A stretch of DNA of 64,000 bases, taken from positions 15,995 through 79,994 of the forward strand of contig CAYZMM010000017.1 of assembly GCA_964479535.1 (NCBI GenBank). Direction: 5' to 3'. The position numbers were made by a program, and so were the translations under genes. A model generated the notes under the pieces. It was not told the origin of the DNA. It saw only the letters and a program-made list of their open reading frames with translations, and did not search any database. The stretch is from an uncultured Thermodesulfobacteriota bacterium. Lineage in GTDB: Bacteria; Desulfobacterota; DSWW01. This document shows positions 1-32,061 of the stretch, piece after piece; position 1 is the first letter of the stretch, and each line of letters opens with the position of its first letter.

Positions 1-1227
1 GAGTCGAAGGCCCTCCTCGCCGCTTACGGTATTCCCGTGAATCGGACGGAAATCGCCTCGACCGCTCAGGAGGCGGTGGAAAAGGCAGGGGAACTCGGAT
101 ATCCCGTGGCCATGAAGATTCATTCCAGAGACATTCTGCACAAGACCGACGCGAACGGGGTCCGCCTGAATCTTCGATGCGAACAGGACGTGCGGGAGGC
201 CTTCGACGAAACCCTGGCCGGGGCGCACGCCTTCCAACCGGAGGCCCGTCTGGAAGGCGTGACGATCCAGCCCATGCTCGAACGCCCCGACTTCGAGTTG
301 ATCCTCGGTGCGAAACAGGACCGGGATTTCGGGCCTGTGATCCTCTTCGGCACGGGCGGGATCATGACCGAGGTCCTCAGGGACCAGGCGATCGCCCTCC
401 CTCCGTTGAACCGCCTTCTTGCCAGAAGATTGATGGAAGAGACGAAGATTCACTGCGTCCTCCGTGGCTACCGCAATCGCCCACCCGCCGACATCGATCT
501 CCTCGAGGAAATCCTGATCCGTCTGGCCCGCCTCGTGACCGACTTCTCGGAGATCGACGAACTGGATATCAACCCCTTCCTCCTCGCCGGGAACAGGGCC
601 TGTGCAGTGGATGCAAGAGTCCTGTTGCGCACTCCACGGACCGCGGCGCCGTTCCACCTCGTGATCAGCTCCTATCCGAACCAGCATGAGACCCATACCG
701 TCTCCGAGGGCGGTCTGCCCTGTTTCCTCAGGCCCATCCGACCCGAGGACGCCCCTCTTCTGAAGGAACTCTTCGATTCACTGTCCCCCCAGAGCGTTTA
801 CTTCCGCTTCTTCGCCCCTCTCAAGGCCCTCCCTCACAAGATGCTGGCCCGTTTCACCCAGATCGACTACGACCGGGAGATCGCCCTCATCGCACTCAAG
901 GAAGACGCGACCGAGGAGAAGATGCTCGGCGTTGCACGCGCCATCCGTGTGCCGGGTGAAGACCGGGCCGAAATGAGCGTTGTCGTCGGGGACCCCTGGC
1001 ACGGCAAAGGCATTGGAGCGGTGCTGCTCAGGCACTGTGTCGAGATCGCCGCCGAACAGGGAATCGAGGAGATGTGGGGGATCGTCCTGCCGGAGAACAC
1101 GCGCATGCTCGCCTTGGGACGGAAGCTCGGCTGCGACATCCGTCGAAGCCCCGATTCCCGGGACTATGAATTGCGGATCGATCTTCGGAAGCTGCGGCAA
1201 GACACCGCCCATGCCGTCGGCGCATGA
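1..1227 (+). CDS. ADP-forming acetyl-CoA synthetase-like / C-terminal GNAT protein acetyltransferase (Pat-type), 5' end outside window
   Basis: Frame 1 is open from nt 1 (ESKALLAAYGIPV..., ATP-grasp-like). The C-terminal GNAT region (RPIRPEDAPLLKELF...WHGKGIGAVLL) is homologous to the GNAT end of 16622..18526. Confidence 0.8.
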   Translation, partial: ESKALLAAYGIPVNRTEIASTAQEAVEKAGELGYPVAMKIHSRDILHKTDANGVRLNLRCEQDVREAFDETLAGAHAFQPEARLEGVTIQPMLERPDFELILGAKQDRDFGPVILFGTGGIMTEVLRDQAIALPPLNRLLARRLMEETKIHCVLRGYRNRPPADIDLLEEILIRLARLVTDFSEIDELDINPFLLAGNRACAVDARVLLRTPRTAAPFHLVISSYPNQHETHTVSEGGLPCFLRPIRPEDAPLLKELFDSLSPQSVYFRFFAPLKALPHKMLARFTQIDYDREIALIALKEDATEEKMLGVARAIRVPGEDRAEMSVVVGDPWHGKGIGAVLLRHCVEIAAEQGIEEMWGIVLPENTRMLALGRKLGCDIRRSPDSRDYELRIDLRKLRQDTAHAVGA

Positions 1228-7607: not shown

Positions 7608-8375
7608 TCAGACAGCTTTCTTTGCGGAGGGCTCGACCAGCCCTTTCGCCTCCATGGCCCCGGCCACGAGATCCACGATGAGATCCATCGAAAGGGTCCC
7701 CTGGTTGAGCACCATGTCGTACAGCTCCGGGTTCTCGATGTCCTCGTTGAAGTACTTTCTGAAAAAGGCTTCCCGCTCCGCATCGTAGAGGCGGATTCTT
7801 CGGATCGCTTCTTCCTGCGAAAGCTGGTGGAAGGAAGCCACTTGGTCGGCCCGCCACGACAGGGGAGCCACGATACGGATATGGAAGCCTGTCGCCAGGT
7901 CCCGGCTGATCTTGCAGGCGCCCCGACCCACGACCACCGCGTGGCCCTTCTCGCAGATGCTCCGGATCACCCGAACCATCCGCTGGAAGACCTCGTCCTC
8001 CACCGGCCATTTCTGGAGAAGCGTGTCCATGTACCTGGCGATCTTCGTCCTGGCCCCGCTCGTGAGCAGATCGGCCAGGCGCTTGTTCATCTTCATGTCG
8101 GTAGCGATGCGGCTCACGATCTCCTTGTCGTAGAGCGTCCACTTGGTATCGGACCGCTCCCACTGATTCAAATGCTCGGAAAAACGGAGCCCCGTTTCCA
8201 GGGCCATGCACCCGTATTGGCGGCTGATCGTCAGGAAGGGTTTCCCCGCCCCTCTCTTCTGCCGCTTCTCCTTCTCCCACTGGGCCACCATGGCCCCGAT
8301 GTACTGGTCCTTCTCCTTTTCCGTGTAGAGTCGGAAGACCCCGAATCCCAGGGGGCTCTTCTTTCGAATGGCCAT
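7608..8375 (-). CDS. Cytidylate kinase-like family protein
   Basis: FLTISRQYGCMALE...VVVGRGA...HIRIVAP pattern typical of this family. Strong RBS AGGAGGAGGG. Confidence 0.75.
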   Translation of the reverse strand: MAIRKKSPLGFGVFRLYTEKEKDQYIGAMVAQWEKEKRQKRGAGKPFLTISRQYGCMALETGLRFSEHLNQWERSDTKWTLYDKEIVSRIATDMKMNKRLADLLTSGARTKIARYMDTLLQKWPVEDEVFQRMVRVIRSICEKGHAVVVGRGACKISRDLATGFHIRIVAPLSWRADQVASFHQLSQEEAIRRIRLYDAEREAFFRKYFNEDIENPELYDMVLNQGTLSMDLIVDLVAGAMEAKGLVEPSAKKAV

Positions 8376-12020: not shown

Positions 12021-12124
12021 CCGGGCGGCGCAGGCCGCAGTGCCGGAGTCCGCAAAGGGTGCTGCGCGGTTGCGCCGTCTTTTGACAAGAGGGCCGGGAA
12101 TGAATTATTCTAGAGGATTCCTGA

Positions 12125-12331
12125 ATGACGAGGTGTCCTCCCATGGGTTTGATCATGACAACGAGCAATTACTGCTTCGTGCAGTGCGACGGGCCCCGAT
12201 GCAACAAGAAGATCGAGAATGTGGACAAGAAGGCGTTGCTGCGTCTGGTCAAGCTCTGCGGGTGGGAGGAGAGGGGCGACCTATGGTTCTGCGAGGACTG
12301 TGCGAAAGGTGTGGATCACCCGCCCTCCTGA
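12125..12331 (+). CDS. Small cysteine-rich (zinc-ribbon-like) hypothetical protein
   Basis: CFVQCDGPRC...FCEDC. The 3' end overlaps the convergent AcnX small subunit by 16 nt. Confidence 0.4.
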   Translation: MTRCPPMGLIMTTSNYCFVQCDGPRCNKKIENVDKKALLRLVKLCGWEERGDLWFCEDCAKGVDHPPS

Positions 12332-12753
12332 CCCTCACACCTTTCTCTTCCGCCGCCGCCACGTTCCGTTACCTCCACCCTGCCGTTGTCGGCATCCACC
12401 AGGAGTTCCACACCCTCCGGGATCCGATCGATGTCGATCCGGTCGATGCACGGGATCTCCGCGATGATCGCACCGACGGCAACGATCGTCTCACACTCCC
12501 GGTTCAGAATCGCCACGGGCGCGGTGCCGGTCTTCTTCATCCTGTAAAGAGTGTAACTGCCGACGGTCGAGCCCTTTCCCCGAGGGAAGACCAGGACCGC
12601 TCCGCTCACGCTTCTGCCCTGCAGCGGGTGGCCCTCCTCCTCGACGATGCCCGTGTCCGGATCGACGCCCCCGAAAAAGGAGATGCCCTCGCCGGACACG
12701 AGGGCCCTGCCCCTCGCCCTGCCTCCGAAGATCTTCCTTCCCTGCAGATTCAT
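12316..12753 (-). CDS. Aconitase X swivel-domain subunit (DUF126, AcnX small subunit)
   Basis: GRALVSGEGISFFGGVDPDTG...LVFPRGKGSTVGSYTLY is the DUF126 signature. Starts 1 nt after the large-subunit stop. Confidence 0.85.
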   Translation of the reverse strand: MNLQGRKIFGGRARGRALVSGEGISFFGGVDPDTGIVEEEGHPLQGRSVSGAVLVFPRGKGSTVGSYTLYRMKKTGTAPVAILNRECETIVAVGAIIAEIPCIDRIDIDRIPEGVELLVDADNGRVEVTERGGGGRERCEGQEGG

Positions 12754-12754
12754 T

Positions 12755-13930
12755 TCAGGGCCTCACGGCGATCTCGATGAGCTTCTCCAGGGGCGCAAAG
12801 ACGGTCCTGAACCGGTTCTTCGCCCTCCCGTAGAAGACCGCCTTCGCGGAGTTCGTGGCCATGCAGCGGAACCGCCCCCGGATGGGCGCAACGACGAAGC
12901 ACGTATCTGCAGCCAGTTTCGCGCCGCTCTCCCGAATCGTGGCGACGAGCCCCTCCCCCTCTGCAGCCTCCTTCACCTGCCTTGCCACGGCAATCCAGGT
13001 CTCCTTGCAGACCCGTCTCCCTTCCAGCAGCCTGGCGATCGTTCGCAGCTCTTCCAGGGAGCAGTGGGGGCATCCCACCGCGACGAAGTCCACCTCCTCG
13101 TCGTCGATCATCTCCTCTTTCGCCCGCTCCATCTCTTCGCCGCCGACGGTCGTTCTCTCGGCGGGTTCTTTCGCCTTCCCGGGGGAAACGCCGGGGGCGT
13201 GGAACATGGCGGTTCCGCCGTAGGTCGCAATGGACGCGCAGAGGCTCTTCAACTCGTCCACGTTCGCATGATCCAGGCCGTGGATCGACGGCACCCGGTT
13301 CCCGAGCCTCTCGCCCACGACCTTGCCCAGGGCGCCGTAGTCGGTGGTATCGTGGAGGGGCGCACACACCTCGACAGCTACCGTCGGCTGCCGGTTCGCA
13401 TCCAGATGCAGGCCGTAAGCAGCCGTCTTGCCCGTGAGCGCGGCGGCAAGTGCGCTCGGACCGCCTTCCCTGTTCGTCCTGGCTCCGAGCACGGAGTTCG
13501 CGTAGCAAACGGCCGAGCTCTCGCTCCAGGCGATCGTGTCCCCGGAGGCGGGCTCGTTGCCGACGAAGTAGGGGGTGCAGGTACAGCTCGTCACCACCCC
13601 CATGCGGGCGAAGGCCTCGACCACCCGCTGCTGTTTTTCGGCGAAGGCCTCGCTGATCCCCAGATCCCGCCAGTCGAGCAGATCCATGCCCGCGGGGTTC
13701 AGCGTCGCGGGCACCCTGGCCCGTCCGTCTTCGGCCATCTCCTGGAGAAAGGCAAGCCCGGCTTCTCCCAGGTTGTCGTAGCTCACACCCGCGATCTGGA
13801 CGCTCTTCACCTCGATGAGTCTCGCCGCCTCGTAGATTTCGCCGAGGGCCGCGAGGATCTCCATCGCCTTCTTCGCGGCACGGCCTTCCTGCCCGTTCAG
13901 GATCGCCTCTTCCTCTTCCGTCAGACGCAT
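12755..13930 (-). CDS. Aconitase X catalytic subunit (DUF521, AcnX large subunit)
   Basis: MRLTEEEEAILNGQEG...SCTCTPY...WSESSAVCYANSVLGARTNREG is the DUF521 signature, with the Fe-S ligand region. Confidence 0.9.
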   Translation of the reverse strand: MRLTEEEEAILNGQEGRAAKKAMEILAALGEIYEAARLIEVKSVQIAGVSYDNLGEAGLAFLQEMAEDGRARVPATLNPAGMDLLDWRDLGISEAFAEKQQRVVEAFARMGVVTSCTCTPYFVGNEPASGDTIAWSESSAVCYANSVLGARTNREGGPSALAAALTGKTAAYGLHLDANRQPTVAVEVCAPLHDTTDYGALGKVVGERLGNRVPSIHGLDHANVDELKSLCASIATYGGTAMFHAPGVSPGKAKEPAERTTVGGEEMERAKEEMIDDEEVDFVAVGCPHCSLEELRTIARLLEGRRVCKETWIAVARQVKEAAEGEGLVATIRESGAKLAADTCFVVAPIRGRFRCMATNSAKAVFYGRAKNRFRTVFAPLEKLIEIAVRP

Positions 13931-13957
13931 CCGTTCGCCTTCCCGCGGCCAGCCTGT

Positions 13958-15274
13958 CTATCCATCGAGCAGCTTCTTCAGATCGATGTCCGGGAACTTC
14001 GCCCGCTCGAAATGCCTCGCCCTTTCACCGAGCGGTTTGGTGCAGTCGAAGCCGCACTTCGCCGTGAAATTCGTTTCCGGATCGGCGCTCGGGTCCAAGC
14101 TGCTCCCCTTCTCCCGGTCCTTGACCACCAGGCCGACATCCCCCTGGAATCGGGTGGCCATGGCCCACTCCACCTGGTAGGGGTCGTAGATGTCCACGTC
14201 GCGGTCCACGACGAAGACGTGCTTGCAGCTCCCATGCCCGCGGAACCCGGCCTCGATCGCCTTCTTCCCGTCCTCTTCCCCCTTCTTGTCGATCTTGATG
14301 ACGGCGTGCAGCCAGCTGCACCCGCCCGGATTCACGTTCACGTCCAGGCAGGTCACGCCCGCGCCGTTCACCTCACGATAGATCGTCGGCTCGCGGGGCA
14401 TGCCCATCAGCATCTGGTGCTCGCGCCTTCCGGGAAGCAGTGCCTGCCAGAGGGCGTCTCTTCTATGGGTGATGCAGGTAACATGGAAGACCGGCTCTTG
14501 CCTCACGATGTCGTAGGTGTCGGTCAGATCGACGAAGGGGCCCTCCGCTGCCCTTTCCGCGAGCGTCATCACACCCTCCAGGACGAATTCGCAGTCGGCC
14601 GGGATCATGCCCTCGAAGGTCTTCGGCTTCGTCACCTTGAGAGGCTCGAGGGCATTCGCAATCGTAAGCTCGTTGACGCCCAGGGGCACCGAGGTGGCTG
14701 CAGCCAGGAGAACGTTCGGAGCATTTCCGACGCAGACGGCGACGGGAAGCGTCTTGTCCCGGTTCAGGAGCGCATCGAAATCCCTCTGCTTCACGACGCG
14801 CACGCTGAACCGGTCCCTGCCGACCTGCATGGCCCGGTGAAAATCCACGTTCTGAAGGCCCGTCACGCTCTTCGTGACGAAGACCCCGCTGGTGATGTAC
14901 CTTCCACCATCCTCCTCACAATGAAAGAGAATCGGAAGCCGGTCCAGGTCCACCTCCGATTCCACCACCTCCTGGCAGGAGGCCTGCTCGACCTCTTCCG
15001 GTTCCGTCGGGTGCTCGATGGCGTGGACGATCTTCGGGATCAGCTCGTGCGGCTCGATACCGAAGTAGTCTGCGAACTGCTGTTTCGCGCCGAAGAGGTT
15101 ACCCACCACCCGGAATGCAGACCCTTCCACCTCCTCGAACAGGACCGGCCTCCCCTCCAGCGCATTCAGGACCGCCGCGGCCTCCAGATGCCGGCTGACC
15201 GTCTTTCGCACGGAAACAAGCCGCCCCGCAATTCGCAGTGCCTCGATGAAACGTCTGAGTCCCATTGCCTTCAC
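13958..15274 (-). CDS. UbiD family (prenyl-FMN dependent) decarboxylase
   Basis: UbiD-like over its full length (NLFGAKQ..., GRYITSGVFVTK, GPFVDLTDTYD, VFVVDRDVDIYDPYQVEWAMATR). An ATG at 15265 is an alternative to the GTG at 15274. Confidence 0.9.
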   Translation of the reverse strand: MKAMGLRRFIEALRIAGRLVSVRKTVSRHLEAAAVLNALEGRPVLFEEVEGSAFRVVGNLFGAKQQFADYFGIEPHELIPKIVHAIEHPTEPEEVEQASCQEVVESEVDLDRLPILFHCEEDGGRYITSGVFVTKSVTGLQNVDFHRAMQVGRDRFSVRVVKQRDFDALLNRDKTLPVAVCVGNAPNVLLAAATSVPLGVNELTIANALEPLKVTKPKTFEGMIPADCEFVLEGVMTLAERAAEGPFVDLTDTYDIVRQEPVFHVTCITHRRDALWQALLPGRREHQMLMGMPREPTIYREVNGAGVTCLDVNVNPGGCSWLHAVIKIDKKGEEDGKKAIEAGFRGHGSCKHVFVVDRDVDIYDPYQVEWAMATRFQGDVGLVVKDREKGSSLDPSADPETNFTAKCGFDCTKPLGERARHFERAKFPDIDLKKLLDG

Positions 15275-15384
15275 CCGTCCGATGACATACCATTGAAAGG
15301 CCCAGCCAGAGTATAAGAGCGCTTCCGAGGGGTCAAGCAGACGCAGAAGCTTCCATGATCGAGCGGACGGAGAGGAAGTAGAGG

Positions 15385-16608
15385 ATGATCGACGTAGGTG
15401 TGAGCGACATCGCCGTCTACATTCCCCAGTTCTATCTTCCCCACGATGAACTGGCCCTGGCGCGAGGGGTCCCTCCGGAGAAATTCCGCGAAGGTCTCGG
15501 CAACCACAAGATGTCCATCCTCCCGAACTGGGAGGACGCGGTGACCATGGCGGCGAATGCCGCTGCGCAGCTTCTCGAGAAGACGGGGACGAACCCCCAG
15601 GAGATTCATCAACTCGTGGTCAGCACGGAAAGCGGTGTGGACCATTCGAAACCGGTGGCCAGCTTCGTCCAGGGGCTGCTCAACATCGGCTCCCGGTGCC
15701 GTATCTACGAGATCAAGCACGCCTGCTACGGCGGCACGGCCGGCATCGTGACCTCCATCGACTGGATCGCCAGAAACTACGGAAACTCCAAGAAGGCCCT
15801 GGTGATCATGACCGACATGGCGCGGTACGGTTTCGGCTCGGCGGGCGAGCCCACGCAGGGGGCCGGGGCCGTCGCCCTTCTCATGGAGCAGAACCCCCGG
15901 CTCCTCTCGGTCGACACCCGGATGAACGGCATCTTCTCCAAAGACGTGTTCGACTTCTGGCGCCCCACCGGACACCGGGTTCCGGTGGTGGACGGAAAGT
16001 ACTCGGTCGCCTGCTATCTGGAGGCGATGGAGGAAGCGGTCTCCCACTTCCGTTCCAATCTGGGCATCCCCAGGGGAAAGCTCTTCGAGCATCTCGACTA
16101 CATCCTCTACCACATGCCCTTCACCGGCATGGCGAGAAAGGCACACCGTCATCTCGTCGATACGGAACACGTGGACCTCGACAAGGAATCCCGAGAGGGC
16201 CTCTACACGGAGAGCTTCCGGGCAAAAGTGGAGCCCGGGCTGCTGGGCGCCAGAGAGGTGGGCAACATCTACACCGGGTCGGTTTACATGGGCCTGGCCA
16301 GTCTGCTCGAGACGGAGCGGAATCGTGTGGAAGGCAAACGGGTAGGCGTCTTCAGCTACGGGAGCGGCTGCGGGGCGGAGTTCTTCGTCTGCGAGATGAA
16401 GACCGGCATCGGCAAGATCGTCCGGGGCATGCGTTTCCGTGAGCAGCTGGACCGGAGAAAGGCGATCACCTTCGAACAGTATGTCCAGTGGTATTCAAGA
16501 ACCGGCGCGGAGACCCTCTACCATCGGGCGGAGGTGGAAGCCCACAAGGACCCCTTCACCCGGTTCACCTTCATCGGGTTCAAGGACCACAAGCGCCAGT
16601 ACGTTTAG
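15385..16608 (+). CDS. mvaS: Hydroxymethylglutaryl-CoA synthase
   Basis: STESGVDHSKP, EIKHACYGGTAG (catalytic Cys), GEPTQGAGAVALL and DFWRPTGH..PVVDG are colinear with bacterial MvaS. Confidence 0.95.
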   Translation: MIDVGVSDIAVYIPQFYLPHDELALARGVPPEKFREGLGNHKMSILPNWEDAVTMAANAAAQLLEKTGTNPQEIHQLVVSTESGVDHSKPVASFVQGLLNIGSRCRIYEIKHACYGGTAGIVTSIDWIARNYGNSKKALVIMTDMARYGFGSAGEPTQGAGAVALLMEQNPRLLSVDTRMNGIFSKDVFDFWRPTGHRVPVVDGKYSVACYLEAMEEAVSHFRSNLGIPRGKLFEHLDYILYHMPFTGMARKAHRHLVDTEHVDLDKESREGLYTESFRAKVEPGLLGAREVGNIYTGSVYMGLASLLETERNRVEGKRVGVFSYGSGCGAEFFVCEMKTGIGKIVRGMRFREQLDRRKAITFEQYVQWYSRTGAETLYHRAEVEAHKDPFTRFTFIGFKDHKRQYV

Positions 16609-19076: not shown

Positions 19077-19163
19077 CGTCTTCATGATCCTGGTCTGCTA
19101 GGAATCGAGGGCTGGAGCAGATACCCGAACGGACCTGAGATGAGAACGGAGGGAGTCGGAGAA

Positions 19164-20384
19164 ATGGAGAAGACCTTGCTCGACCGGCTGATCGTCCTGG
19201 CCCTGGCCACACTGTTGACCGGAGGATGCCTCGAGATCGCGGCAACACCCCCGGAAGGGGAATGGTACAAGGGAGATCTCCACTGCCACTCCCTGCACAG
19301 CGACGGGGACAGCCCCGTGCAGGACGTCGTCGCCGTTGCCGAATCGAGGGGCCTGGATTTCTTCGTCATCACCGACCATGACGGAAACATGGACGGATCG
19401 CCCACGCAGTGGTACGACCCGGACTATGGTTCCGACGGGATGGTCATGCTCTACGGGGTGGAGTGGACGACCGGCGCGGGGCATGCCAACGTATGGGCGG
19501 CCGATCCCTTCGACTATACGGACCTCTGGCTCGCCAACCGCGCACAGGATGCTCAGGCGGCGGTCGACGCCGCGCACGACCAGGGCGCTCTCTTCTCCAT
19601 CAACCACCCGAGTGCCTTTCTCTGCTGCCCCTGGGAATGCGAGGAATACGAGGGCGTGGACAGCATCGAAATCTGGAACGCCATGTATCTTCTGCCGAAT
19701 TTCAATTTCGTTTCCGTGAAGAGCTTCTGGGACAACCACCTCCTGGCCGGCAGGCGAATCCCCGGCGTGGGGGGAAGCGATACCCATCAGCTCGTCGGCT
19801 TCGAATCCAACTTCCTCCGCCTTGCGGAACCCACCACCTGGGTCTTTGCAGAGGAGCGGACAGCCGATGCAGTCATCGCCGGAATTCAGGCCGGCCGTGT
19901 ATCCGTGACCGACGAGCCCGGAAGCCCTCGCATCGATTTCACGGCGGACACGGACGGAGACGGGGTTTTCGAGACGATCATGGGGGACAACGTGGTCCTG
20001 GCCGGAGAAGCGCTCGTCGACCTGCGTATCCGGGTCGTGTCGCACGACCTCCTTGACACCACGGCGACTACGGAGGATCTCACAAACCGGCTCGCTTCGG
20101 CGGATGAGGAGGGAGAAGCCGGGGCCGCAGAGGAACTCGTCTCCGCCTTCCTGAACGGTGGAGAGTACCTGGTCGTCCTGAGGAGAAACGGAGACCTGCA
20201 CGGCCTCTGGAGGGCCCATGGGGATGCGGCCCGGATCGACCTGGCCGAGAGAATCGACCCGTCCGACCGGGTCTACTACCGGGTCGAGCTTCTCGGAGCG
20301 TCTACGTTCGACTTCGTGAACACGCTGCTCAGGGGATACACCAAGGCCCTGTCGAACCCCATCTATTTCAACTATCCGGACTGA
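19164..20384 (+). CDS. PHP-domain metallohydrolase (CehA/McbA-like), probable lipoprotein
   Basis: Lipobox LLTGGC. GDLHCHSLHSDGD and FFVITDHD PHP motifs. Confidence 0.8.
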   Translation: MEKTLLDRLIVLALATLLTGGCLEIAATPPEGEWYKGDLHCHSLHSDGDSPVQDVVAVAESRGLDFFVITDHDGNMDGSPTQWYDPDYGSDGMVMLYGVEWTTGAGHANVWAADPFDYTDLWLANRAQDAQAAVDAAHDQGALFSINHPSAFLCCPWECEEYEGVDSIEIWNAMYLLPNFNFVSVKSFWDNHLLAGRRIPGVGGSDTHQLVGFESNFLRLAEPTTWVFAEERTADAVIAGIQAGRVSVTDEPGSPRIDFTADTDGDGVFETIMGDNVVLAGEALVDLRIRVVSHDLLDTTATTEDLTNRLASADEEGEAGAAEELVSAFLNGGEYLVVLRRNGDLHGLWRAHGDAARIDLAERIDPSDRVYYRVELLGASTFDFVNTLLRGYTKALSNPIYFNYPD

Positions 20385-20539
20385 GGTGCCGCGAACCTCC
20401 CGCATCTCCGCTCCGAAGGCCACCCCTGTGCCGAGGGGCTATCGCGGAATTCCATAGACAGGCCGTGTCGCCGGGTCTATAGTGGGGCAGACCCGCATGC
20501 AGCGGTCGAAGTTCGACGTTCAAACGGAGGGAACAGGAA

Positions 20540-21751
20540 ATGCTGTGGGAATTACAGAAGGCATCCTACAGAGCCTTCCAGGTCGTGATGAAAGGCGTCC
20601 TGATGATTCTTCCCTATCCCGTGCCGGAGTTGTTCACCGGTGCCGGATCGCTGGGCAGGCTGCCGGGAAGCATCCGGGCCAACGGCCTGCGTCACATCCT
20701 GGTGGTGACGGACAGGGGTCTGGTGGCCGCCGGTCTCGTACAGCGGCTGTCGGACATGCTCGAACAGGACGGCGTCTCCTTCACCCTCTTCGACGATGTA
20801 CAGCCGAATCCGACCCTTCAGAACGTCGAGGACGGTCTGCGACTCTACGTGGAGAACAGGTGTGACGGGATCGTCGCCTTCGGCGGGGGTTCGCCCATGG
20901 ATTGCGCCAAACTGATCGGGGCGCGGGCCGCGAACCCGAAGCGCTCCGTACAGGCCATGAGAGGATTGTTCAAGGTACGAAAGAAGCTTCCGCCCCTCTT
21001 CGCCGTGCCGACCACGGCCGGCACGGGATCGGAGACGACGGTCGCAGCGGTGATCAGCGACCCGCAGACGCACGAGAAGTTCGCCGCGGTGGATCTCAAG
21101 CTGGTTCCCCCTTTCGCCGTGCTCGACCCGGAGCTGATGCTCGGGCTGCCTCCTCACATCACGGCGGCAACCGGCATGGACGCGCTCACCCATGCTGTCG
21201 AGGCCTATATCGGAGGTTACAAGACGAGGTTCACGGACGAAAACGCGGAGAAGGCGACCCGGATCATCTTCGACGACCTGGAGGCGGTCTACAGAGACGG
21301 TTCCGATCTGGAGAAACGGAACAACATGGCTCTTGCATCGTTCTACGCAGGCTCCGCTTTTACCCGCGCCTACGTGGGCTACGTGCACGCGATCGCCCAC
21401 AACATGGGCGGACTCTACGGGGTCCCCCACGGCCTGGCGAACGCGATCATCCTTCCCCACGTGCTCCGTTTCTCCAGGAGAGAAGCAGAAGAGAAGCTGG
21501 CCCGTCTCGCACGCACCGTCGGACTTGGCACGGTTGCGGATTCGGACGAAGAACTCTCTTATCGGCTCATCGAAAGAATCGAGGAGATGAACCGGAACAT
21601 GGACATCCCGACCTTCATCAAGGAGCTTCGGGAAGAGGACATTCCTCTGATCGCGGAACGGGCCCTGAAGGAGGGAAACCCCGAATACCCCGTGCCCCGC
21701 CTCATGAACCGACGGGAATGTGAAACCCTGGTTCGGCAGCTGCTCCCGTAG
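20540..21751 (+). CDS. Iron-containing alcohol dehydrogenase
   Basis: AFGGGSPMDCAK, VPTTAGTGSE and HAIAHNMGG motifs. Confidence 0.9.
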   Translation: MLWELQKASYRAFQVVMKGVLMILPYPVPELFTGAGSLGRLPGSIRANGLRHILVVTDRGLVAAGLVQRLSDMLEQDGVSFTLFDDVQPNPTLQNVEDGLRLYVENRCDGIVAFGGGSPMDCAKLIGARAANPKRSVQAMRGLFKVRKKLPPLFAVPTTAGTGSETTVAAVISDPQTHEKFAAVDLKLVPPFAVLDPELMLGLPPHITAATGMDALTHAVEAYIGGYKTRFTDENAEKATRIIFDDLEAVYRDGSDLEKRNNMALASFYAGSAFTRAYVGYVHAIAHNMGGLYGVPHGLANAIILPHVLRFSRREAEEKLARLARTVGLGTVADSDEELSYRLIERIEEMNRNMDIPTFIKELREEDIPLIAERALKEGNPEYPVPRLMNRRECETLVRQLLP

Positions 21752-24847: not shown

Positions 24848-25507
24848 CTATTCTTTATCCAGCAGCGTATTCTCCAGCCATACGAACAGCCCGATGATGA
24901 TGAAGGCGCCCGGCGCCAGTACCATCAAGCCGTTGTTCACATAGCCGAGTTCGTAAAATGCATCGGGCACCACCTGGAATCCGAGCAGCTTGCCCGAGCC
25001 GAGCAATTCCCTGAAGAAAGCAACGCCGATCAGGATCGAACTGTATCCGATGCCGTTCGCAATGCCGTCCATGAAGGAACGAAAAGGGGGATTGCTCAGT
25101 GCGTACCCCTCGGCCCGTCCCAGGACGATGCAGTTGGTGATGATCAACCCGACGAAAACAGAAAGCTGTTTGCTGATGTCGTACATGAACGCCTTGAGCA
25201 CCTCGTCGGCCATGATCACCAGGGTGGCAATCACGGCCACCTCGACGATGATGCGGATGTTTCGAGGGATCACGCTGCGCATGCTCGAAATGGCCAGATT
25301 GGAGAAGGCGACCACGAAGGTCAGGGCCATACTCATGACGATGGCGGTGTTAAGCTGTACGGTGACCGCCAGGGCGGAGCAGATTCCGAGGATCTGTTTG
25401 GAGATCGGGTTTGCTTCCCACAGGGCGCGCACGACGTCCTTGAAGGCCTTGGTCTTCCGGATCGCAATCCAGGGACGCATAAGGGTTCCGTTCATCCTCC
25501 TCTCCAT
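24848..25507 (-). CDS. nqrD: Na+-NQR subunit D
   Basis: [17 protein letters not shown] and [14 protein letters not shown] motifs. An ATG at 25495 is an alternative start. Confidence 0.95.
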
Positions 25508-25687
25508 CCGGGAGGCTGCCCCAAAAGTCCCATCTGCGGCGTTCGGCTTCTCCCCTCGTCATTCAACGTACAGAAAGTACGCTTCATTCCTCGGGCTTTC
25601 GCCTGCCTTGCATCTGGAAGATTTCGAACAGCCTCCTTCAGGTTACTCTTACGAAGGACCGCCAGGCACCGGGACAGCGTGAAAGGA

Positions 25688-26416
25688 TCATTCGGTGTTC
25701 CCGTCCTCGATCGGTGGTTCGTTGATCTGGTTCTTTCGGAACCGGATCGAGACCGGTTCATAGTTCTCCAGAATCTCCTTCAGACCCGCCGTCAGGTATT
25801 TGCCCGTCATGGTGGCACCGCTGATGCCGTCCACGTAGTGGGGCCGCTTTGCGGGCGGCACCGTATCCTGCACGGCACCCTTGGCAATGGCGACCGATAC
25901 GAAGTCGCCGCTGCGGTCCACGATCTTCTTGCCGACCCAGTTCTTCTGGAACCACGCCTTCTCGATTTCACCTCCCAGCCCGGGGGTTTCCGAGTGTTTG
26001 TAAACCGTGAAGCCGGTAATGGTGCTGCCGTCGTCGTCGATGGCCAGGTACCCGTGAATCTTCCCCCACAGCCCCCTGGAGTTGAAGGGCACGATGTAGG
26101 CTTCGATCTCGTCTTCTTTCAGGTACACGTAGAGCGGAAAATCGCTTTCCCCCCGCTCGGATTCGTCGATCAACCGGCCCGACGGATCTACCCAGAGCGG
26201 TTCGATGTATTCATCATACATGGACTCGATGGTCTCGGCCGGAACCTTTTCGCCCTCTTCGACCAGCCCCACCGACCTGAGAATGTTCCGGTGCTTGTCG
26301 ATGCGCATGTTCTTCTGCTGAAACCGGTGGAGACCGGTGGAAGCGGTGGTCAGGATGATGCTGCAAACGAGACAGAGGGCTGCCGCAAACAGGATCGACT
26401 TCAACCGGTCAGACAT
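25688..26416 (-). CDS. nqrC: Na+-NQR subunit C
   Basis: N-terminal TM. ETPGLGG and the covalent-FMN site DGISGATMTG. Confidence 0.9.
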   Translation of the reverse strand: MSDRLKSILFAAALCLVCSIILTTASTGLHRFQQKNMRIDKHRNILRSVGLVEEGEKVPAETIESMYDEYIEPLWVDPSGRLIDESERGESDFPLYVYLKEDEIEAYIVPFNSRGLWGKIHGYLAIDDDGSTITGFTVYKHSETPGLGGEIEKAWFQKNWVGKKIVDRSGDFVSVAIAKGAVQDTVPPAKRPHYVDGISGATMTGKYLTAGLKEILENYEPVSIRFRKNQINEPPIEDGNTE

Positions 26417-27590
26417 TGGGGATCCTTTTCCTCAGCCTCATCCCTATCTCGATATGATCCAGAAGGGGAGCGAAAAGGTTCATGAACAGAACCGCCAGTC
26501 CGACCCCCTCGGGAAACGCCGGGTTGAAGACCCGTATCAGAACGGTCAGGGCGCCGATCCCGAAGCCGAAGACCCACCTGGCTCCCTGCATGTGTGCGGC
26601 CGAAACCGGATCGGTGGCCATGTAGGCAAAGGCAAACATGCTCCCGCCGATGATCAGGTGATGGAACGGGTTCAGGGCGAGATAAGGCGACCCTCCCGCC
26701 GCCACCAGGTTCAGCAGCCCTCCGGTCAAGACCATACCGAGAATGCAACCGAAGATGATCCGGTAGCTGGCAATACCCAGCAGAATCAGAAAAGCGGCGC
26801 CCACAAAACTCAGAATGGCCGTCGTGCCCCCTATGCTGCCGGGGTAGAGACCGAACAGCAGATTTGCCGTGCTGTAGCCGGCATCGGAAAAGGCGGACAG
26901 GACGTCCCCGGAGGGCTGGGTCGCGGCGGCGATCGAAAGGGGCGTGGCGCCACTGACCGCATCCACCGAACCGGCTCCGCCGTCGCTCAGCACCGTCCAG
27001 ATCGCGTCACCGGAATTCTGAGCCGGATAGGCGAAGTAGAGAAAGGCCCTGGCGGTCAGGGCCGGATTCAGGAAATTCCTGCCCGTCCCGCCGAAGATCT
27101 CCTTCCCGATCACGATGCCGAAGGAGATGCCCATGGCCGCCTGCCAAAGGGGAATGGTGGGCGGCAGGGTGAGGGGCAGCAGGGCGCACGTCACCAGCAC
27201 GCCTTCGCTCATCTCGTGCTTTCGCACGGAAGCGAACAAGGTTTCCCAGGCAAAGCCGAAGACATAGACCACCACGACGATCGGAACCACCGCCTTCAAC
27301 CCGGTCCAGATCACCGGCCAGAACTCGGTTCCGAGGCCGGAAGCCAGATGGGACTGCAGGCCGACGTTGTATACGCCGAACGCGTAGTGGGGCATCAAGG
27401 CGACGATGACCAGCATCATGTATCTCTTCACATCGAGCTGGTCTCTCACGTTGGGGGCGACACGGCTGGCCCGCGCCGGCGAGAAGAAGACCGATTCGAT
27501 GGACTCGTAAAAGGGCCACAGCCTTTCGAGTCTACCGCCTTTTTCGAAATGTCTTCGCGTGGATTCGAAGAATTTCTCAATCGGATTCAT
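26409..27590 (-). CDS. nqrB: Na+-NQR subunit B
   Basis: RnfD/NqrB-type protein with the FMN attachment site DAVSGATPLS. Confidence 0.95.
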   Translation of the reverse strand: MNPIEKFFESTRRHFEKGGRLERLWPFYESIESVFFSPARASRVAPNVRDQLDVKRYMMLVIVALMPHYAFGVYNVGLQSHLASGLGTEFWPVIWTGLKAVVPIVVVVYVFGFAWETLFASVRKHEMSEGVLVTCALLPLTLPPTIPLWQAAMGISFGIVIGKEIFGGTGRNFLNPALTARAFLYFAYPAQNSGDAIWTVLSDGGAGSVDAVSGATPLSIAAATQPSGDVLSAFSDAGYSTANLLFGLYPGSIGGTTAILSFVGAAFLILLGIASYRIIFGCILGMVLTGGLLNLVAAGGSPYLALNPFHHLIIGGSMFAFAYMATDPVSAAHMQGARWVFGFGIGALTVLIRVFNPAFPEGVGLAVLFMNLFAPLLDHIEIGMRLRKRIPNV

Positions 27591-28944
27591 CGGCGTGCCT
27601 GCTCTTTTCGTTGTAGAAGTCCGCTTTCGCCTGCTTCAATGTTTCGAAGAGTTCGATCTTGGATGGACAAACGTAGGAGCACAGAGCGCATTCGACACAG
27701 TCCAGCAAGCCGTGTTCGAGGGATTCCTCGACTTCTCCCGCCAGGACGGCCTTGTAGGTGAACTGGGGGAGAATGTCGACCGGACAAACCAGGGCACAGT
27801 AACCGCAGGCGATGCAGGCTCGTTCACCTCCGTTCATGCTGCAGTTCATTTCGAGTTCTTCGGGGTTGAGCGCCGACAGAAACGCCCTGGAATAGGTTGG
27901 TTTGCGATAGCCGGGATGGAACAGCCCCAGCAACTCGCCCTTCCGGTCACCCTCGGGCAGCAGATTGAGGGCTGTCTCCGCGAATCCGAGATGCGACGGC
28001 TCCCCGGTACCGGAACCGGTCAAGATGCCGCCCTGGATGTACCGCCAGCTTTCGTTCCCGTCCCGTTCGGCCGCCATGACGGAAAGGGGCGCTCCCATTC
28101 GGGTGGCCCTGTGCGCGGGTTGACGCACTCCGGACCCTCCCACGGACACGATGCGTTCGGTGGGATAGAGGCCCCTTTGCAGGAGACGGGCCATCATCAC
28201 CACGTCCTGCCCGTCCACATACCACGAACGGTTCTCCTCGGGTGACGACTTCATTCGGTACAGAAGAGCGCCCGGGTCGTGAGCCGGGTAGTTGCCCGTG
28301 TAGGTCAGATTGATCAGGCTCTCGAGCGATGACGCCCATTCCGTATCGGCGCTGTGTCTGCAGACATACACGCGGCCTTCGGCCAGTTTGCTCAAAACCC
28401 TCAAGCCGAACTGGAAGAGCCCCTCGTTGTCGTGAAGATAGACCTGCGGCGCCGGGTGAAAGGGCTCGAGGCTTCCGAGGGAGACGAACAAGGCCGGCGG
28501 AACGAAGTCCTCTCGGGGGTAATCCCTGAAGGGCAACTCCCTGATCAATGGCCAGAGGCCCCCGGCGACAAGGGCTTGAACGACTTGCTCCCGACTCATT
28601 CCGTCGACGTCTGCCTGGCTGTACCGCTCGAACTCCACCGATTCTTCGGTCTCATCCAGGTCGACGACGATTTCTTGAATCACCCGCCGCGGTCCGTATC
28701 GGATTTCCGCCACCCGCCCGCCGCCCGGCGACAGGAATCGAATGTCCGTGTTGCGCTTGTCTTCGAACAGAGGGGACCCGAGTGCGACACGATCACCCTT
28801 TGCGACCTTCAACCGGGGCTTCACAAAGGGGATACGCTCCGGCAGCACCGCCAACCGGCTCGGTGGCTCGGCCTCCTGCAGTGCAGCGGACGGCGATCCG
28901 ACAACCTTTAGATGGTAGCCTTTCTTGACGCGGACCGTCTTCAT
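27577..28944 (-). CDS. nqrA: Na+-NQR subunit A carrying two intact 4Fe-4S ferredoxin-type motifs
   Basis: The MKTVRVKKGYHLKVVGSPS start resembles the NqrA N-terminus, and the body is NqrA-like. The C-terminus has CIACGYCALVCP and CVECALCSYVCP. The tracked ORF extends to a GTG at 29061. Confidence 0.9.
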   Translation of the reverse strand: MKTVRVKKGYHLKVVGSPSAALQEAEPPSRLAVLPERIPFVKPRLKVAKGDRVALGSPLFEDKRNTDIRFLSPGGGRVAEIRYGPRRVIQEIVVDLDETEESVEFERYSQADVDGMSREQVVQALVAGGLWPLIRELPFRDYPREDFVPPALFVSLGSLEPFHPAPQVYLHDNEGLFQFGLRVLSKLAEGRVYVCRHSADTEWASSLESLINLTYTGNYPAHDPGALLYRMKSSPEENRSWYVDGQDVVMMARLLQRGLYPTERIVSVGGSGVRQPAHRATRMGAPLSVMAAERDGNESWRYIQGGILTGSGTGEPSHLGFAETALNLLPEGDRKGELLGLFHPGYRKPTYSRAFLSALNPEELEMNCSMNGGERACIACGYCALVCPVDILPQFTYKAVLAGEVEESLEHGLLDCVECALCSYVCPSKIELFETLKQAKADFYNEKSRHADESD

Positions 28945-29057
28945 CCAGGTCTTTCTAGAAGGGGAATTCCCGCCATGTTCTGGTCGGTTTGAGAACTCTG
29001 TTTCCGGTGGCTTCAGGTTAGGTGATGAAGGAAATCGTGTCAACCGGACCTCGTCGC

Positions 29058-30446
<1,389 letters not shown>

Positions 30447-30450
30447 GGGG

Positions 30451-30732
30451 TCAATCCTTTCGCTTGAACATTCCCAGCATTCGGTGGGTGACGAGGAAGC
30501 CCCCGACCACGTTGATCGTCGCGAACAGCACGGCAAGAAAACCGAGAATCGTCGTGAGTGTGGTCTGCTGGCTGCCGGCGGACAGGATCGCTCCGATCAG
30601 GGTGATGCCGGAGATCGCATTCGATCCGGACATCAGAGGTGTGTGAAGGGTGGGCGGCACCTTGGTGATCACCTCGACGCCCACGAAGAGGGCCAGCACG
30701 AAGATCGTGAGTACGCCCGTGAAGACTTCCAT
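30451..30732 (-). CDS. pntAB: NAD(P) transhydrogenase subunit alpha part 2
   Basis: 93-aa, three-TM protein (HTPLMSGSNAISGI). Confidence 0.9.
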   Translation of the reverse strand: MEVFTGVLTIFVLALFVGVEVITKVPPTLHTPLMSGSNAISGITLIGAILSAGSQQTTLTTILGFLAVLFATINVVGGFLVTHRMLGMFKRKD

Positions 30733-30771
30733 AGAAAAACTCCATTCCCGTATGCCACGTCAGGATAAGAG

Positions 30772-30791
30772 ATTCCCGCCTGTGCGGGAAT
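30772..30791. repeat. REP-like palindrome ATTCCCGC-CTGT-GCGGGAAT
   Basis: Perfect 8-bp stem in the pntAA-pntAB spacer. A related copy is at 37072-37089. Confidence 0.4.
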
Positions 30792-30801
30792 GACAAGACG
30801 A

Positions 30802-31953
30802 TCAAAGAGAGAGGATTTCCCGGATGCGGTCGTTCGCCACATCGCCGTCCCGGGTGAAGAGGGTCTCCCGCACCACCTCATCCTCCATGTTCAGATTCAG
30901 CTCGCCCTCTTTCACGAGCAGGAGCAGGAGGTTCGCCACGTTCTTCGCGTACATCTGACTCGCGTGATACGGAATCGTGGCAGGCAGATTGACCGGACCG
31001 AGGATCGTCACACCCTCTTCCACCACGGTCTCCCCCGGCTTCGTGACCTCGCAGTTCCCTCCACGCTCCGCCGCCAGATCCACGATCACCGATCCGCGCG
31101 GCATGGCCTGCACCATCTCCCGGCTGATCAGTGTGGGGGCCTTCTTGCCCGGCACGGCCGCCGTGGTGACCACCACATCGGTCTCGGAGAGTACGCGGGT
31201 CATCATCTCCCGCTGCTTCTTGTAGAACTCCTCCCCCATCTCCCTTGCATAGCCCCCGCTGCCTTCGGACTCCCCCGTCTCCAGCTCCAACTCGACGAAC
31301 TTGGCGCCCAGGCTCTCCACCTGCTCTTTGACCACGGGCCGCACATCGTAGCCCGAGACCACGGCCCCCAGCCGCCGGGCCGTGGCGATCGCCTGGAGAC
31401 CCGCAACGCCGGCACCGACCACGAACACCTTGGCCGGCACGATCGTCCCGGCTGCGGTCATCATCATGGGGAACATCTTCGGGAGCGTGCGTGCGGCCAT
31501 CAGGACCGCCTGGTAGCCGGCCACGGTGGCCATGGAGGAGAGGGCGTCCATGCTCTGGGCCCGGGTGATCCGCGGGACCAGCTCCATGGCAAAGGAGGTC
31601 ACCCGTCGGTCCTGCAGCTCCCGGACCGCGTCGGGCGCGGAATAGGGTTCCAGAAACCCGATCAGGGCCTGTCCGGCCCGCATGCGCTTCAAGTCATCGA
31701 TTCCGGCGTCCGGATTGGCGCCTCCTGCCCTGACCTGGAGTACGACGTCCGCCTTCTCGAAGACCTCTTCGCGGGTCGATGCGAGGCGGGCCCGCTTCTC
31801 CTGGTAAGCGGCATCCGGAAAGCCTGCCGCGGCGCCCGCCCCCGCCTCCACCAGCACCTCGATGCCGGCCTTTTCCAGGGCAGGAAGGCCGGCTGGGATC
31901 TGGGCCACCCTCGTCTCGCCGGGGAAGGTCTCCTTCGGAACGCCAGCGATCAT
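30802..31953 (-). CDS. pntAA: NAD(P) transhydrogenase subunit alpha part 1
   Basis: MIAGVPKETFPGETRVA, the alanine-dehydrogenase/PNT fold, and VFVVGAGVAGLQA. RBS AAGGAGA. Confidence 0.95.
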   Translation of the reverse strand: MIAGVPKETFPGETRVAQIPAGLPALEKAGIEVLVEAGAGAAAGFPDAAYQEKRARLASTREEVFEKADVVLQVRAGGANPDAGIDDLKRMRAGQALIGFLEPYSAPDAVRELQDRRVTSFAMELVPRITRAQSMDALSSMATVAGYQAVLMAARTLPKMFPMMMTAAGTIVPAKVFVVGAGVAGLQAIATARRLGAVVSGYDVRPVVKEQVESLGAKFVELELETGESEGSGGYAREMGEEFYKKQREMMTRVLSETDVVVTTAAVPGKKAPTLISREMVQAMPRGSVIVDLAAERGGNCEVTKPGETVVEEGVTILGPVNLPATIPYHASQMYAKNVANLLLLLVKEGELNLNMEDEVVRETLFTRDGDVANDRIREILSL

Positions 31954-32061
31954 CGTCGGATCTCCTTGGTGATCCTTTCCATAGCATTTTCCCCGGGTTT
32001 TGCAAAACGTTCTTTTCGTGGATAGATGCACACGCCGGCTGAAAAGAGTCCCGAGAACCAG

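Follow-up and report, generated by a model that had tools for sequence, protein, structure and literature searches.

A putative archaeal-type PMDh/AMPD gene cassette, divergent from a bacterial-type HMG-CoA synthase operon, in an uncultured Thermodesulfobacteriota bacterium

We analysed a 64-kb stretch of DNA from an uncultured Thermodesulfobacteriota bacterium (contig CAYZMM010000017.1); this whole stretch is referred to as the window. It carries a three-gene cassette for a UbiD-family decarboxylase and both subunits, large and small, of an aconitase X (AcnX). Sequence comparisons show that this cassette is of archaeal origin and indicate, with a probability that we put at about 0.9, that it encodes a mevalonate 5-phosphate dehydratase (PMDh) and a UbiD-type anhydromevalonate phosphate decarboxylase (AMPD). 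It is also likely that the donor was a DPANN-like archaeon and that the cassette, which stands head-to-head with a native bacterial operon for 3-hydroxy-3-methylglutaryl-CoA (HMG-CoA) synthase (HMGS), takes part in a chimeric mevalonate route. That this genome holds a complete working pathway is rather probable, if slightly less so. A preliminary description of the same DNA had proposed archaeal-type mevalonate enzymes in a bacterium, tied to HMGS, and the identity of the enzymes is supported by landmark residues, phylogeny, synteny in sister lineages and purifying selection.

Families were assigned by Pfam and NCBIfam profile scans of about 50 open reading frames (ORFs) in the window. The scans recovered AcnX-small, AcnX-large, UbiD and HMGS at the positions and in the families reported previously. 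The features of the locus are:

12316..12753, minus strand: AcnX-small, swivel (domain 4) subunit of a type IIb AcnX and candidate small subunit of PMDh (PMDh-S); 145 aa; PF01989, NF003046
12755..13930, minus strand: AcnX-large of a type IIb AcnX, candidate large subunit of PMDh (PMDh-L); 391 aa; PF04412
13958..15265, minus strand: UbiD-family decarboxylase of the prenyl-FMN (prFMN) type, AMPD candidate; 435 aa from the ATG at 15265; three UbiD domains
15266..15384, no strand: divergent control region with a promoter-like element towards UbiD and a conserved ribosome-binding site
15385..16608, plus strand: bacterial HMGS of the MvaS type; 407 aa; TIGR01835
16622..18526, plus strand: fusion of a degenerate 4-hydroxybutyrate-CoA-transferase-like domain and a Pat-like GNAT domain; 634 aa; PF02550, PF13336, PF00583
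18561..19076, plus strand: universal stress protein (Usp), last conserved gene of the operon on the HMGS side; PF00582, 2e-26

AcnX-small matched PF01989 (8e-34) and NF003046 (168.6 bits; cut-off 163), and AcnX-large matched PF04412 (3e-147). The small subunit (domain 4) and the large subunit (domains 1-3) are encoded separately and side by side, as in type IIb enzymes. The best PDB match of both subunits was 7cnr, the AcnX of T. kodakarensis (TkAcnX; 1.6e-96 for the large subunit and 1e-42 for the small subunit, 7cnr_B or TK1248), and the pair is nearer to this structure than to hydroxyproline dehydratase. The nearest homologues of AcnX outside its own clade are archaeal and belong to DPANN.

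In TkAcnX, the Fe-S cluster is liganded by C110, C283 and C342, the carboxylate and C3-OH are bound by T63(S), E129, S130, S131, K361 and Y365, the 5-phosphate of mevalonate 5-phosphate is bound by G48, V49, S50, N53 and N79, and S62(S) is the catalytic base (PMC8184944). All 14 large-subunit landmark residues of that study are identical in the aligned AcnX-large of the window, and the five 5-phosphate-binding residues are all retained. The Fe-S cysteines correspond to C118, C287 and C344, which are invariant in 61 of the 61 aligned sequences. AcnX-small keeps the catalytic Ser-Thr-Val motif (GKGSTVGSY, with the equivalents of S62 and T63), and the landmark residues of both subunits are also kept in every member of the bacterial clade described below. 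Furthermore, AcnX-large retains 69 of the 70 columns that are invariant among 34 archaeal homologues; the last ~22 residues of AcnX-small are not conserved. The window enzyme thus shares the large-subunit landmarks and the small-subunit motif with the type IIb structures with bound mevalonate 5-phosphate (7cnr/7cns), but differs from them in that Leu27 of the small subunit is Phe (Phe or Tyr throughout the DPANN-related clade) and in that the large subunit has an insertion of about nine residues after position 84. The pair passes every sequence test available for a type IIb AcnX and is a candidate PMDh.

The UbiD protein contains the three domains PF20695, PF01977 and PF20696, and scored 352.8 bits on TIGR00148 (cut-off 244.85). 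In the alignment, the active-site Asn and Arg (N150 and R155 of AnInD) are kept in an NVDFHR motif. Of the E(D)-R-E network of UbiD enzymes, the protein retains the first Glu as well as the Arg, and the position of the catalytic Glu, E266 in AnInD (PMC8988006), is occupied by Asp in the window and in 49 of the 49 clade members. This Asp falls in a clade signature EGPFxDLT (EGPFVDLTDTY in the window) and could mark anhydromevalonate phosphate decarboxylases at the sequence level. The nearest UbiD homologues outside the clade are 60-69% identical, their named sources being Diapherotrites/Iainarchaeum, Micrarchaeota, Aigarchaeota, Bathyarchaeia and Asgard archaea. In an alignment of 27 archaeal sequences from clusters of mevalonate kinase (MVK), UbiD, AcnX and isopentenyl phosphate kinase (IPK), 57 columns are invariant, and the window protein retains every one of them. 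This identity, the shared operon order, the retention of all 57 columns and the agreement of its tree with that of AcnX-large mark UbiD as the orthologue of the gene in archaeal MVK-UbiD-PMDh-IPK clusters, and it is our AMPD candidate.

Neighbour-joining trees were calculated for 61 AcnX-large and 49 UbiD sequences. The two trees are congruent, and in them a bacterial clade of metagenome-assembled genomes (MAGs) of Thermodesulfobacteriota nests within a DPANN-dominated archaeal radiation. The clade comprises the window and the loci L002, L003, L008, L059/L091, L060, L062, L110, L010, L070, L073/L076, L004, L066 and L064/L065/L068, and its sister in the AcnX tree consists of the Iainarchaeum-type loci L005 and L007. 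The copies from Acidobacteriota and KSB1 lie far from this clade, and the Chloroflexi locus L038 branches apart, with Bathyarchaeia. Because L038 groups with Bathyarchaeia, away from the Thermodesulfobacteriota clade, the acquisition appears to be independent of the one in Chloroflexota. The trees fit a single transfer from archaea to bacteria into the clade, separate from the Chloroflexota case.

The DNA around the cassette is bacterial. Host markers in the window include histidine kinases, a sigma-54 activator that bears a Fis-type HTH, PntAB, CarB and genes of the Rnf/Nqr type. MAG contigs with the nearest relatives of the cassette (79-85% identity) were deposited under the names Thermodesulfobacteriota, Syntrophobacteria or "bacterium". 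A six-gene module, consisting of Usp, the fusion gene and HMGS followed by the divergent UbiD, AcnX-large and AcnX-small, recurs in at least 10 independent assemblies (the junction is shared by L001, L002, L003/L055, L054, L008, L059, L060, L062, L091 and L110), and the Usp gene after the fusion gene is also present in L002, L003/L054, L060, L062 and L110. The linkage of HMGS and cassette persists down to 70-79% protein identity (L110), at a dS of about 0.9-1.0. The GC content at third codon positions (GC3) is 0.80-0.85 in the cassette genes and 0.77-0.89 in the host genes of the window; the nearest archaeal loci have a GC content of 44-45%. In pairwise comparisons with four orthologous loci, dN/dS was 0.06-0.26 across all six module genes, with 0.09-0.22 for AcnX-small and 0.06-0.14 for HMGS. 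Hence, the module genes are under purifying selection, and the cassette is fully adapted to the composition of its host.

The organisation of related loci places the cassette among mevalonate genes. In archaeal loci the order is HMGR-HMGS-...-MVK-UbiD-AcnXL-AcnXS-IPK, with HMG-CoA reductase (HMGR) and an archaeal HMGS a few kb upstream. In the archaeal loci that we fetched, UbiD always precedes AcnX-large and AcnX-small, usually with MVK before and IPK after them, and the gene order of the window cassette is the same as in DPANN and Bathyarchaeia clusters. Among the sister bacteria, L004 (deposited as Thermodesulfobacteriota) and L113/L114 have the order PFOR-MVK-UbiD-AcnXL, followed by AcnXS in L113/L114; the L004 locus ends within AcnXL. 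The MVK of these loci scored 230 bits on TIGR00549 (cut-off 163). L066/L067 and L115 carry a class II HMGR, MVK, UbiD, AcnXL, AcnXS and a HAD gene, and the HMGR of loci of this type scored 364 bits on TIGR00532. The host of L066/L067 is a sulfate-reducing bacterium, as their contig also bears dsrMKJOP, including the triheme DsrJ. A gene fragment lies 10 kb from the cassette in L114; it covers the last 64 residues of a 273-aa AA_kinase and is 58% identical to the C-terminus of the archaeal IPK of L007, including the DVTGG motif. IPK directly follows AcnX-small in the Acidobacteriota locus L041 and the KSB1 locus L044 (170 and 175 bits on NF040647; cut-off 120). In the sub-lineage of the window, HMGS stands where the sister lineages have MVK.

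Two further features of these loci were observed. HMGR is fused in one frame to a squalene-hopene-cyclase-like alpha/alpha-toroid domain of about 500 aa in L066 (4714-7512) and L115 (6108-8906); the fusion protein has 930-956 aa and is encoded directly upstream of MVK-UbiD-AcnX. The gene immediately after AcnX-small encodes a HAD-family phosphatase in L007 (11629-12225), L066 (11456-12238), L115 (12985-13659) and L068, and in L007 it sits between AcnX-small and IPK. We asked whether a Cytidylate_kin2 protein of the window (7608-8375) might replace IPK as a non-homologous isopentenyl phosphate kinase, but this idea was dropped because proximity of the gene to the cassette is limited to the window and the L003/L054 lineage (L003, L054, L055, L057 and L058).

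The HMGS of the window is bacterial. It scored 374.5 bits on TIGR01835, the profile for bacterial HMG-CoA synthase (cut-off 360.35), and its best match in the PDB was the series 5hwo-5hwr (2.8e-95). We take these structures to be those of MvaS of Myxococcus xanthus from Bock et al. 2016, which would make this MvaS the top structural match of the window enzyme. Aligned to 5hwq, it shows the motifs TES, HACYGGTAG and YHMPF, which carry the catalytic Glu, Cys and His, respectively. In contrast, identity to the archaeal HMGS of DPANN clusters is just 23-26%. The module is therefore chimeric, in that its HMGS is of the bacterial MvaS type and only distantly similar to the HMGS of donor-like clusters. 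Stand-alone HMGS homologues that are 68-72% identical to the window HMGS were seen in L112 (8556-11221) and L111, and one such homologue adjoins genes for an acyl-CoA dehydrogenase and electron-transfer flavoprotein (ETF), a hint that HMG-CoA serves purposes other than isoprenoid synthesis in these bacteria.

The gene downstream of HMGS encodes a two-domain protein. Residues 11-433 match 9vag (1e-73) and 3gk7, which have the 4-hydroxybutyrate CoA-transferase fold, and residues 443-620 match structures of Pat and PatZ (4nxy, 9it0, 4oll, 4ava). The active-site Glu of 3GK7 is Glu238 (PMC11659651). In the alignment to 3GK7, Glu238 is replaced by Pro, GGQ337 by ENA, and the G215-I219 loop GIGAI by SIGPL, and these dead-site changes are conserved in nine fusion orthologues with 78-93% identity. 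An exhaustive search showed that CoA-transferase/GNAT fusions are widespread, with about half of the best 150 representatives spanning both domains. Since many other fusion members keep HTEM and GGQ, the loss of the transferase site is specific to the subfamily of the window. The GNAT domain matches PF00583 and PF13302, has the acetyl-CoA-binding motif YQGLGIAT, and resembles the Pat profile NF058543 (2e-25; 89.3 bits, under the cut-off of 460 bits). The most economical reading is that of a Pat-like lysine acetyltransferase whose sensor domain would bind a CoA ester without CoA transfer, and the protein is probably an acyl-CoA-sensing protein acetyltransferase. As in Pat and PatZ, a large N-terminal domain that derives from a CoA-ester enzyme and looks non-catalytic is combined with a C-terminal GNAT domain. 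However, the N-terminal domain here has the 4-hydroxybutyrate CoA-transferase fold instead of being an NDP-forming acyl-CoA synthetase or cNMP-binding domain. The fusion gene always adjoins HMGS in the clade of the window. At the edge of the window, which cuts the gene, an ATP-grasp_5 plus GNAT protein (37-1227, plus strand) resembles the C-terminal portion of a protein acetyltransferase of the Pat/PatZ type (NDP-forming acyl-CoA synthetase-like), and would be a second GNAT regulator in this region.

These results suggest the following scenario. The cassette would have entered the ancestor of the Thermodesulfobacteriota clade from a DPANN-like archaeon, separately from the Chloroflexi event. 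In the sub-lineage of the window it would then have come to lie head-to-head with a native operon of MvaS, the pseudo-CoA-transferase/GNAT gene and Usp, sharing the 119-bp control region. A two-subunit AcnX with a [4Fe-4S] cluster would dehydrate (R)-mevalonate 5-phosphate to trans-anhydromevalonate 5-phosphate, which a prenyl-FMN-dependent UbiD-type enzyme would decarboxylate to isopentenyl phosphate. The resulting mevalonate route would be chimeric, its upper part being bacterial and its lower part archaeal. The catalytic activities of the cassette enzymes are predicted from their sequences, and we infer that thiolase, HMGR, MVK, IPK, UbiX and isopentenyl diphosphate isomerase (IDI) are encoded elsewhere in the genome.

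Several alternative explanations were weighed against this scenario. Archaeal DNA mis-joined to a bacterial contig would account for the fact that the nearest homologues outside the clade are from DPANN archaea, but the same bacterial flanks recur in at least 10 independent assemblies, GC and GC3 match the host genes, a conserved sigma-70-like promoter precedes UbiD, and the sigma-54 activator, two-component systems and Rnf/Nqr genes are on the same contig. The recurring junction, host-like GC3, low dN/dS and conserved promoter-like element exclude misassembly, contamination and pseudogenisation, and we leave such an artefact next to no probability. The chance that the AcnX pair is a type IIa cis-3-hydroxy-L-proline (C3LHyp) dehydratase is equally negligible. 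Such enzymes share the Pfam family, and NF051439 was matched weakly; however, the scores (293.9 and 79.8 bits) are far under the 700-bit cut-off. Trp35, Thr72, Asp203 and Ile206 of AtAcnX are replaced by Phe, Val, Ala and Ser in the window, and the window residues at these four C3LHyp-specific positions are the same as or similar to those of TkAcnX. Moreover, the closest homologues are archaeal, and the neighbourhood has no genes for the catabolism of proline or hydroxyproline. Hence, by the landmark residues, the C3LHyp residues and the NF051439 score, the type IIa assignment fails, while type IIb passes. The preliminary description had also suggested that the CoA-transferase-like protein converts HMG-CoA to free 3-hydroxy-3-methylglutarate; dehydration by AcnX would then give 3-methylglutaconate, and its decarboxylation by UbiD a C5 branched acid. 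The conserved adjacency of HMGS and the CoA-transferase-like gene speaks for this route, as does the existence of a CoA-ester version of the chemistry in the alternative isovaleryl-CoA (AIB) pathway of M. xanthus (PMC5389471). Yet the catalytic Glu, GGQ and active-site loop are lost in nine of the nine fusion orthologues, while active-looking relatives keep HTEM and GGQ, and sister bacterial lineages tie the cassette to MVK and HMGR with no such fusion gene nearby. The combination of a degenerate transferase site with an intact AcnX site for the 5-phosphate, with all five residues in place, makes the free-acid route very unlikely, and this suggestion is unsupported.

A partial or repurposed pathway, with an active cassette in a genome that lacks IPK (or also HMGR and MVK), is unlikely as well, although its probability is appreciable. 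In its variants, which share this probability, isopentenyl phosphate would pass to a non-homologous kinase or another use, or the enzymes would run in reverse, carboxylating and hydrating an imported substrate; HMGS would serve mainly an isovaleryl-CoA-type branch. IPK never stands beside the cassette in the bacterial clade and is always present in archaeal loci, the adjacency of MVK has also been lost in the sub-lineage of the window, relatives of HMGS adjoin acyl-CoA dehydrogenase/ETF genes, and UbiD enzymes are in general reversible. On the other hand, all genes are under strong purifying selection, an IPK-like fragment is on the cassette contig of the sister lineage L114, HMGR and MVK are present in sister lineages, and scattered pathway genes are normal in bacteria.

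The preferred interpretation, PMDh and AMPD in a working mevalonate route, has to be balanced against several observations. The profile scans found no gene for HMGR, MVK, IPK, UbiX, IDI, thiolase or the methylerythritol phosphate (MEP) pathway in the 64-kb window. Searches of the window with tblastn using the IPK, MVK and HMGR of related loci, and a scan for HMGR motifs, were also negative; the earlier statement that HMGR, MVK, IPK and UbiX are missing from the window thus holds. No locus of the bacterial clade has IPK at the place that it holds in archaea. TkAcnX itself showed no activity in vitro (PMC8184944). The trees are neighbour-joining trees without support values, and the UbiD protein was compared with homologues from archaeal clusters, not with the characterised decarboxylases of A. 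pernix or M. mazei. Homologues of the window HMGS with 64-72% identity occur in other bacteria without any mevalonate genes, and in M. xanthus HMG-CoA is the branch point between isoprenoids and isovaleryl-CoA (PMC5389471). For these two reasons the linkage with HMGS, which had been taken as a pointer to a mevalonate role, is conserved but not specific to isoprenoid synthesis. The module of the window differs from the AIB pathway of M. xanthus, however, in having no homologues of AibA/B, AibC and LiuC.

The archaeal mevalonate pathway, consisting of PMDh, AMPD and IPK, was reportedly described by Hayakawa et al. in 2018 for Aeropyrum pernix and Methanosarcina mazei. The window resembles it in its two-subunit AcnX with all landmarks and the UbiD partner in the same operon. 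It differs in that the host is a bacterium, HMGS is of the MvaS type, and the cluster has no IPK, MVK or HMGR. For Ca. Promineifilum breve, a bacterium of the Chloroflexota, the archaeal mevalonate pathway was reportedly described by Kanno et al. 2024 (AEM), as cited in PMC13001223 and PMC12547664, and a 2026 review states that some Chloroflexota encode this pathway. The view that bacterial two-subunit AcnX proteins are only hydroxyproline dehydratases, adopted in the preliminary description, is out of date. Ca. Promineifilum breve and the host of the window would both be bacteria with genes of the archaeal lower mevalonate pathway, but they belong to different phyla. Our literature searches returned no report of a mevalonate pathway for Thermodesulfobacteriota, Desulfobacterota or Syntrophobacteria. 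An archaeal pathway in a bacterium is therefore already known in kind; apparently new are a second, fairly widespread acquisition, the bacterial HMGS and the linked acetyltransferase of a new type.

The layout of the locus was also refined. UbiD and HMGS had been described as divergent across a 110-bp spacer. The divergent arrangement stands, but the spacer is more likely 119 bp, its length when UbiD starts at 15265. The ATG at 15265, which yields 435 aa, is a more likely start than 15274, because an GGTGAAGGCA-ATG motif is kept across orthologous loci and 435 aa is also the length obtained by gene callers. The fusion gene most likely starts at 16622, 13 bp past the HMGS stop and without overlap with HMGS; this start was preferred to that of the longest ORF (16439) because orthologues were called at 633-634 aa. 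UbiD and AcnX-large are separated by 27 bp, and the stop of AcnX-large and the start of AcnX-small by 1 bp, so that the three cassette genes form one operon. In the spacer, the promoter-like elements TTGACC (15336-15331) and TATACT (15315-15310) read towards UbiD, and TATACT and most of TTGAC are invariant in an alignment of six orthologous spacers. A generic promoter scan missed this element because its -35/-10 spacing is 15 nt.

At its end, the cassette operon meets a DUF169-CGGC gene pair in convergent orientation, together with a short ORF rich in Cys. This ORF (12145-12333, plus strand; 62 aa; CxxC...CxxC) overlaps the non-conserved 3' end of AcnX-small, has a promoter-like site nearby (12082-12111), and was also called as a gene on Logan contig L001. 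Downstream of the HMGS operon, a PHP-family metallohydrolase and an Fe-alcohol dehydrogenase (19140-21751) are not conserved across the clade and were not counted in the module. Genes of an Rnf/Nqr-type membrane complex (24848-32031, minus strand) encode an NqrA-like protein bearing a 4Fe-4S domain, subunits of the RnfD/E type and an FMN-binding subunit, and adjoin genes for the PntAB transhydrogenase and a 2Fe-2S/FAD/NAD oxidoreductase. An RND transporter of the HAE3/MMPL family (53449-55836, minus strand) has a sterol-sensing-type domain and, at 171 bits and thus far under the cut-off, is weakly similar to HpnN, a transporter of hopanoids; it is flanked by an acyltransferase gene and two unannotated genes.

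The archaeal mevalonate pathway consumes two ATP per isopentenyl diphosphate, against three in other mevalonate routes. To our knowledge, it is regarded as a hallmark of archaea, with one bacterial exception shown so far. As a tentative view of the whole Thermodesulfobacteriota clade, which is less likely than not, a single acquisition from DPANN, independent of Chloroflexota, could have provided an ATP-saving isoprenoid route; the cassette could have been rewired to a bacterial HMGS, the pseudo-CoA-transferase/GNAT protein could sense acyl-CoA and tune entry into the route by lysine acetylation, and IPK could have left the cluster and perhaps been replaced. The locus would stand for a second acquisition by bacteria, independent of the first and apparently widespread among relatives of sulfate reducers and syntrophs, with a donor identifiable as DPANN-like. 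It would thus bear on the movement of isoprenoid pathways across the domain boundary and on debates about the lipid divide. Furthermore, it would enlarge the pool of oxygen-sensitive PMDh and AMPD variants for the engineering of anaerobic or bacterial hosts, and the pseudo-CoA-transferase/GNAT protein offers a candidate, open to testing, for the regulation of HMG-CoA synthesis.

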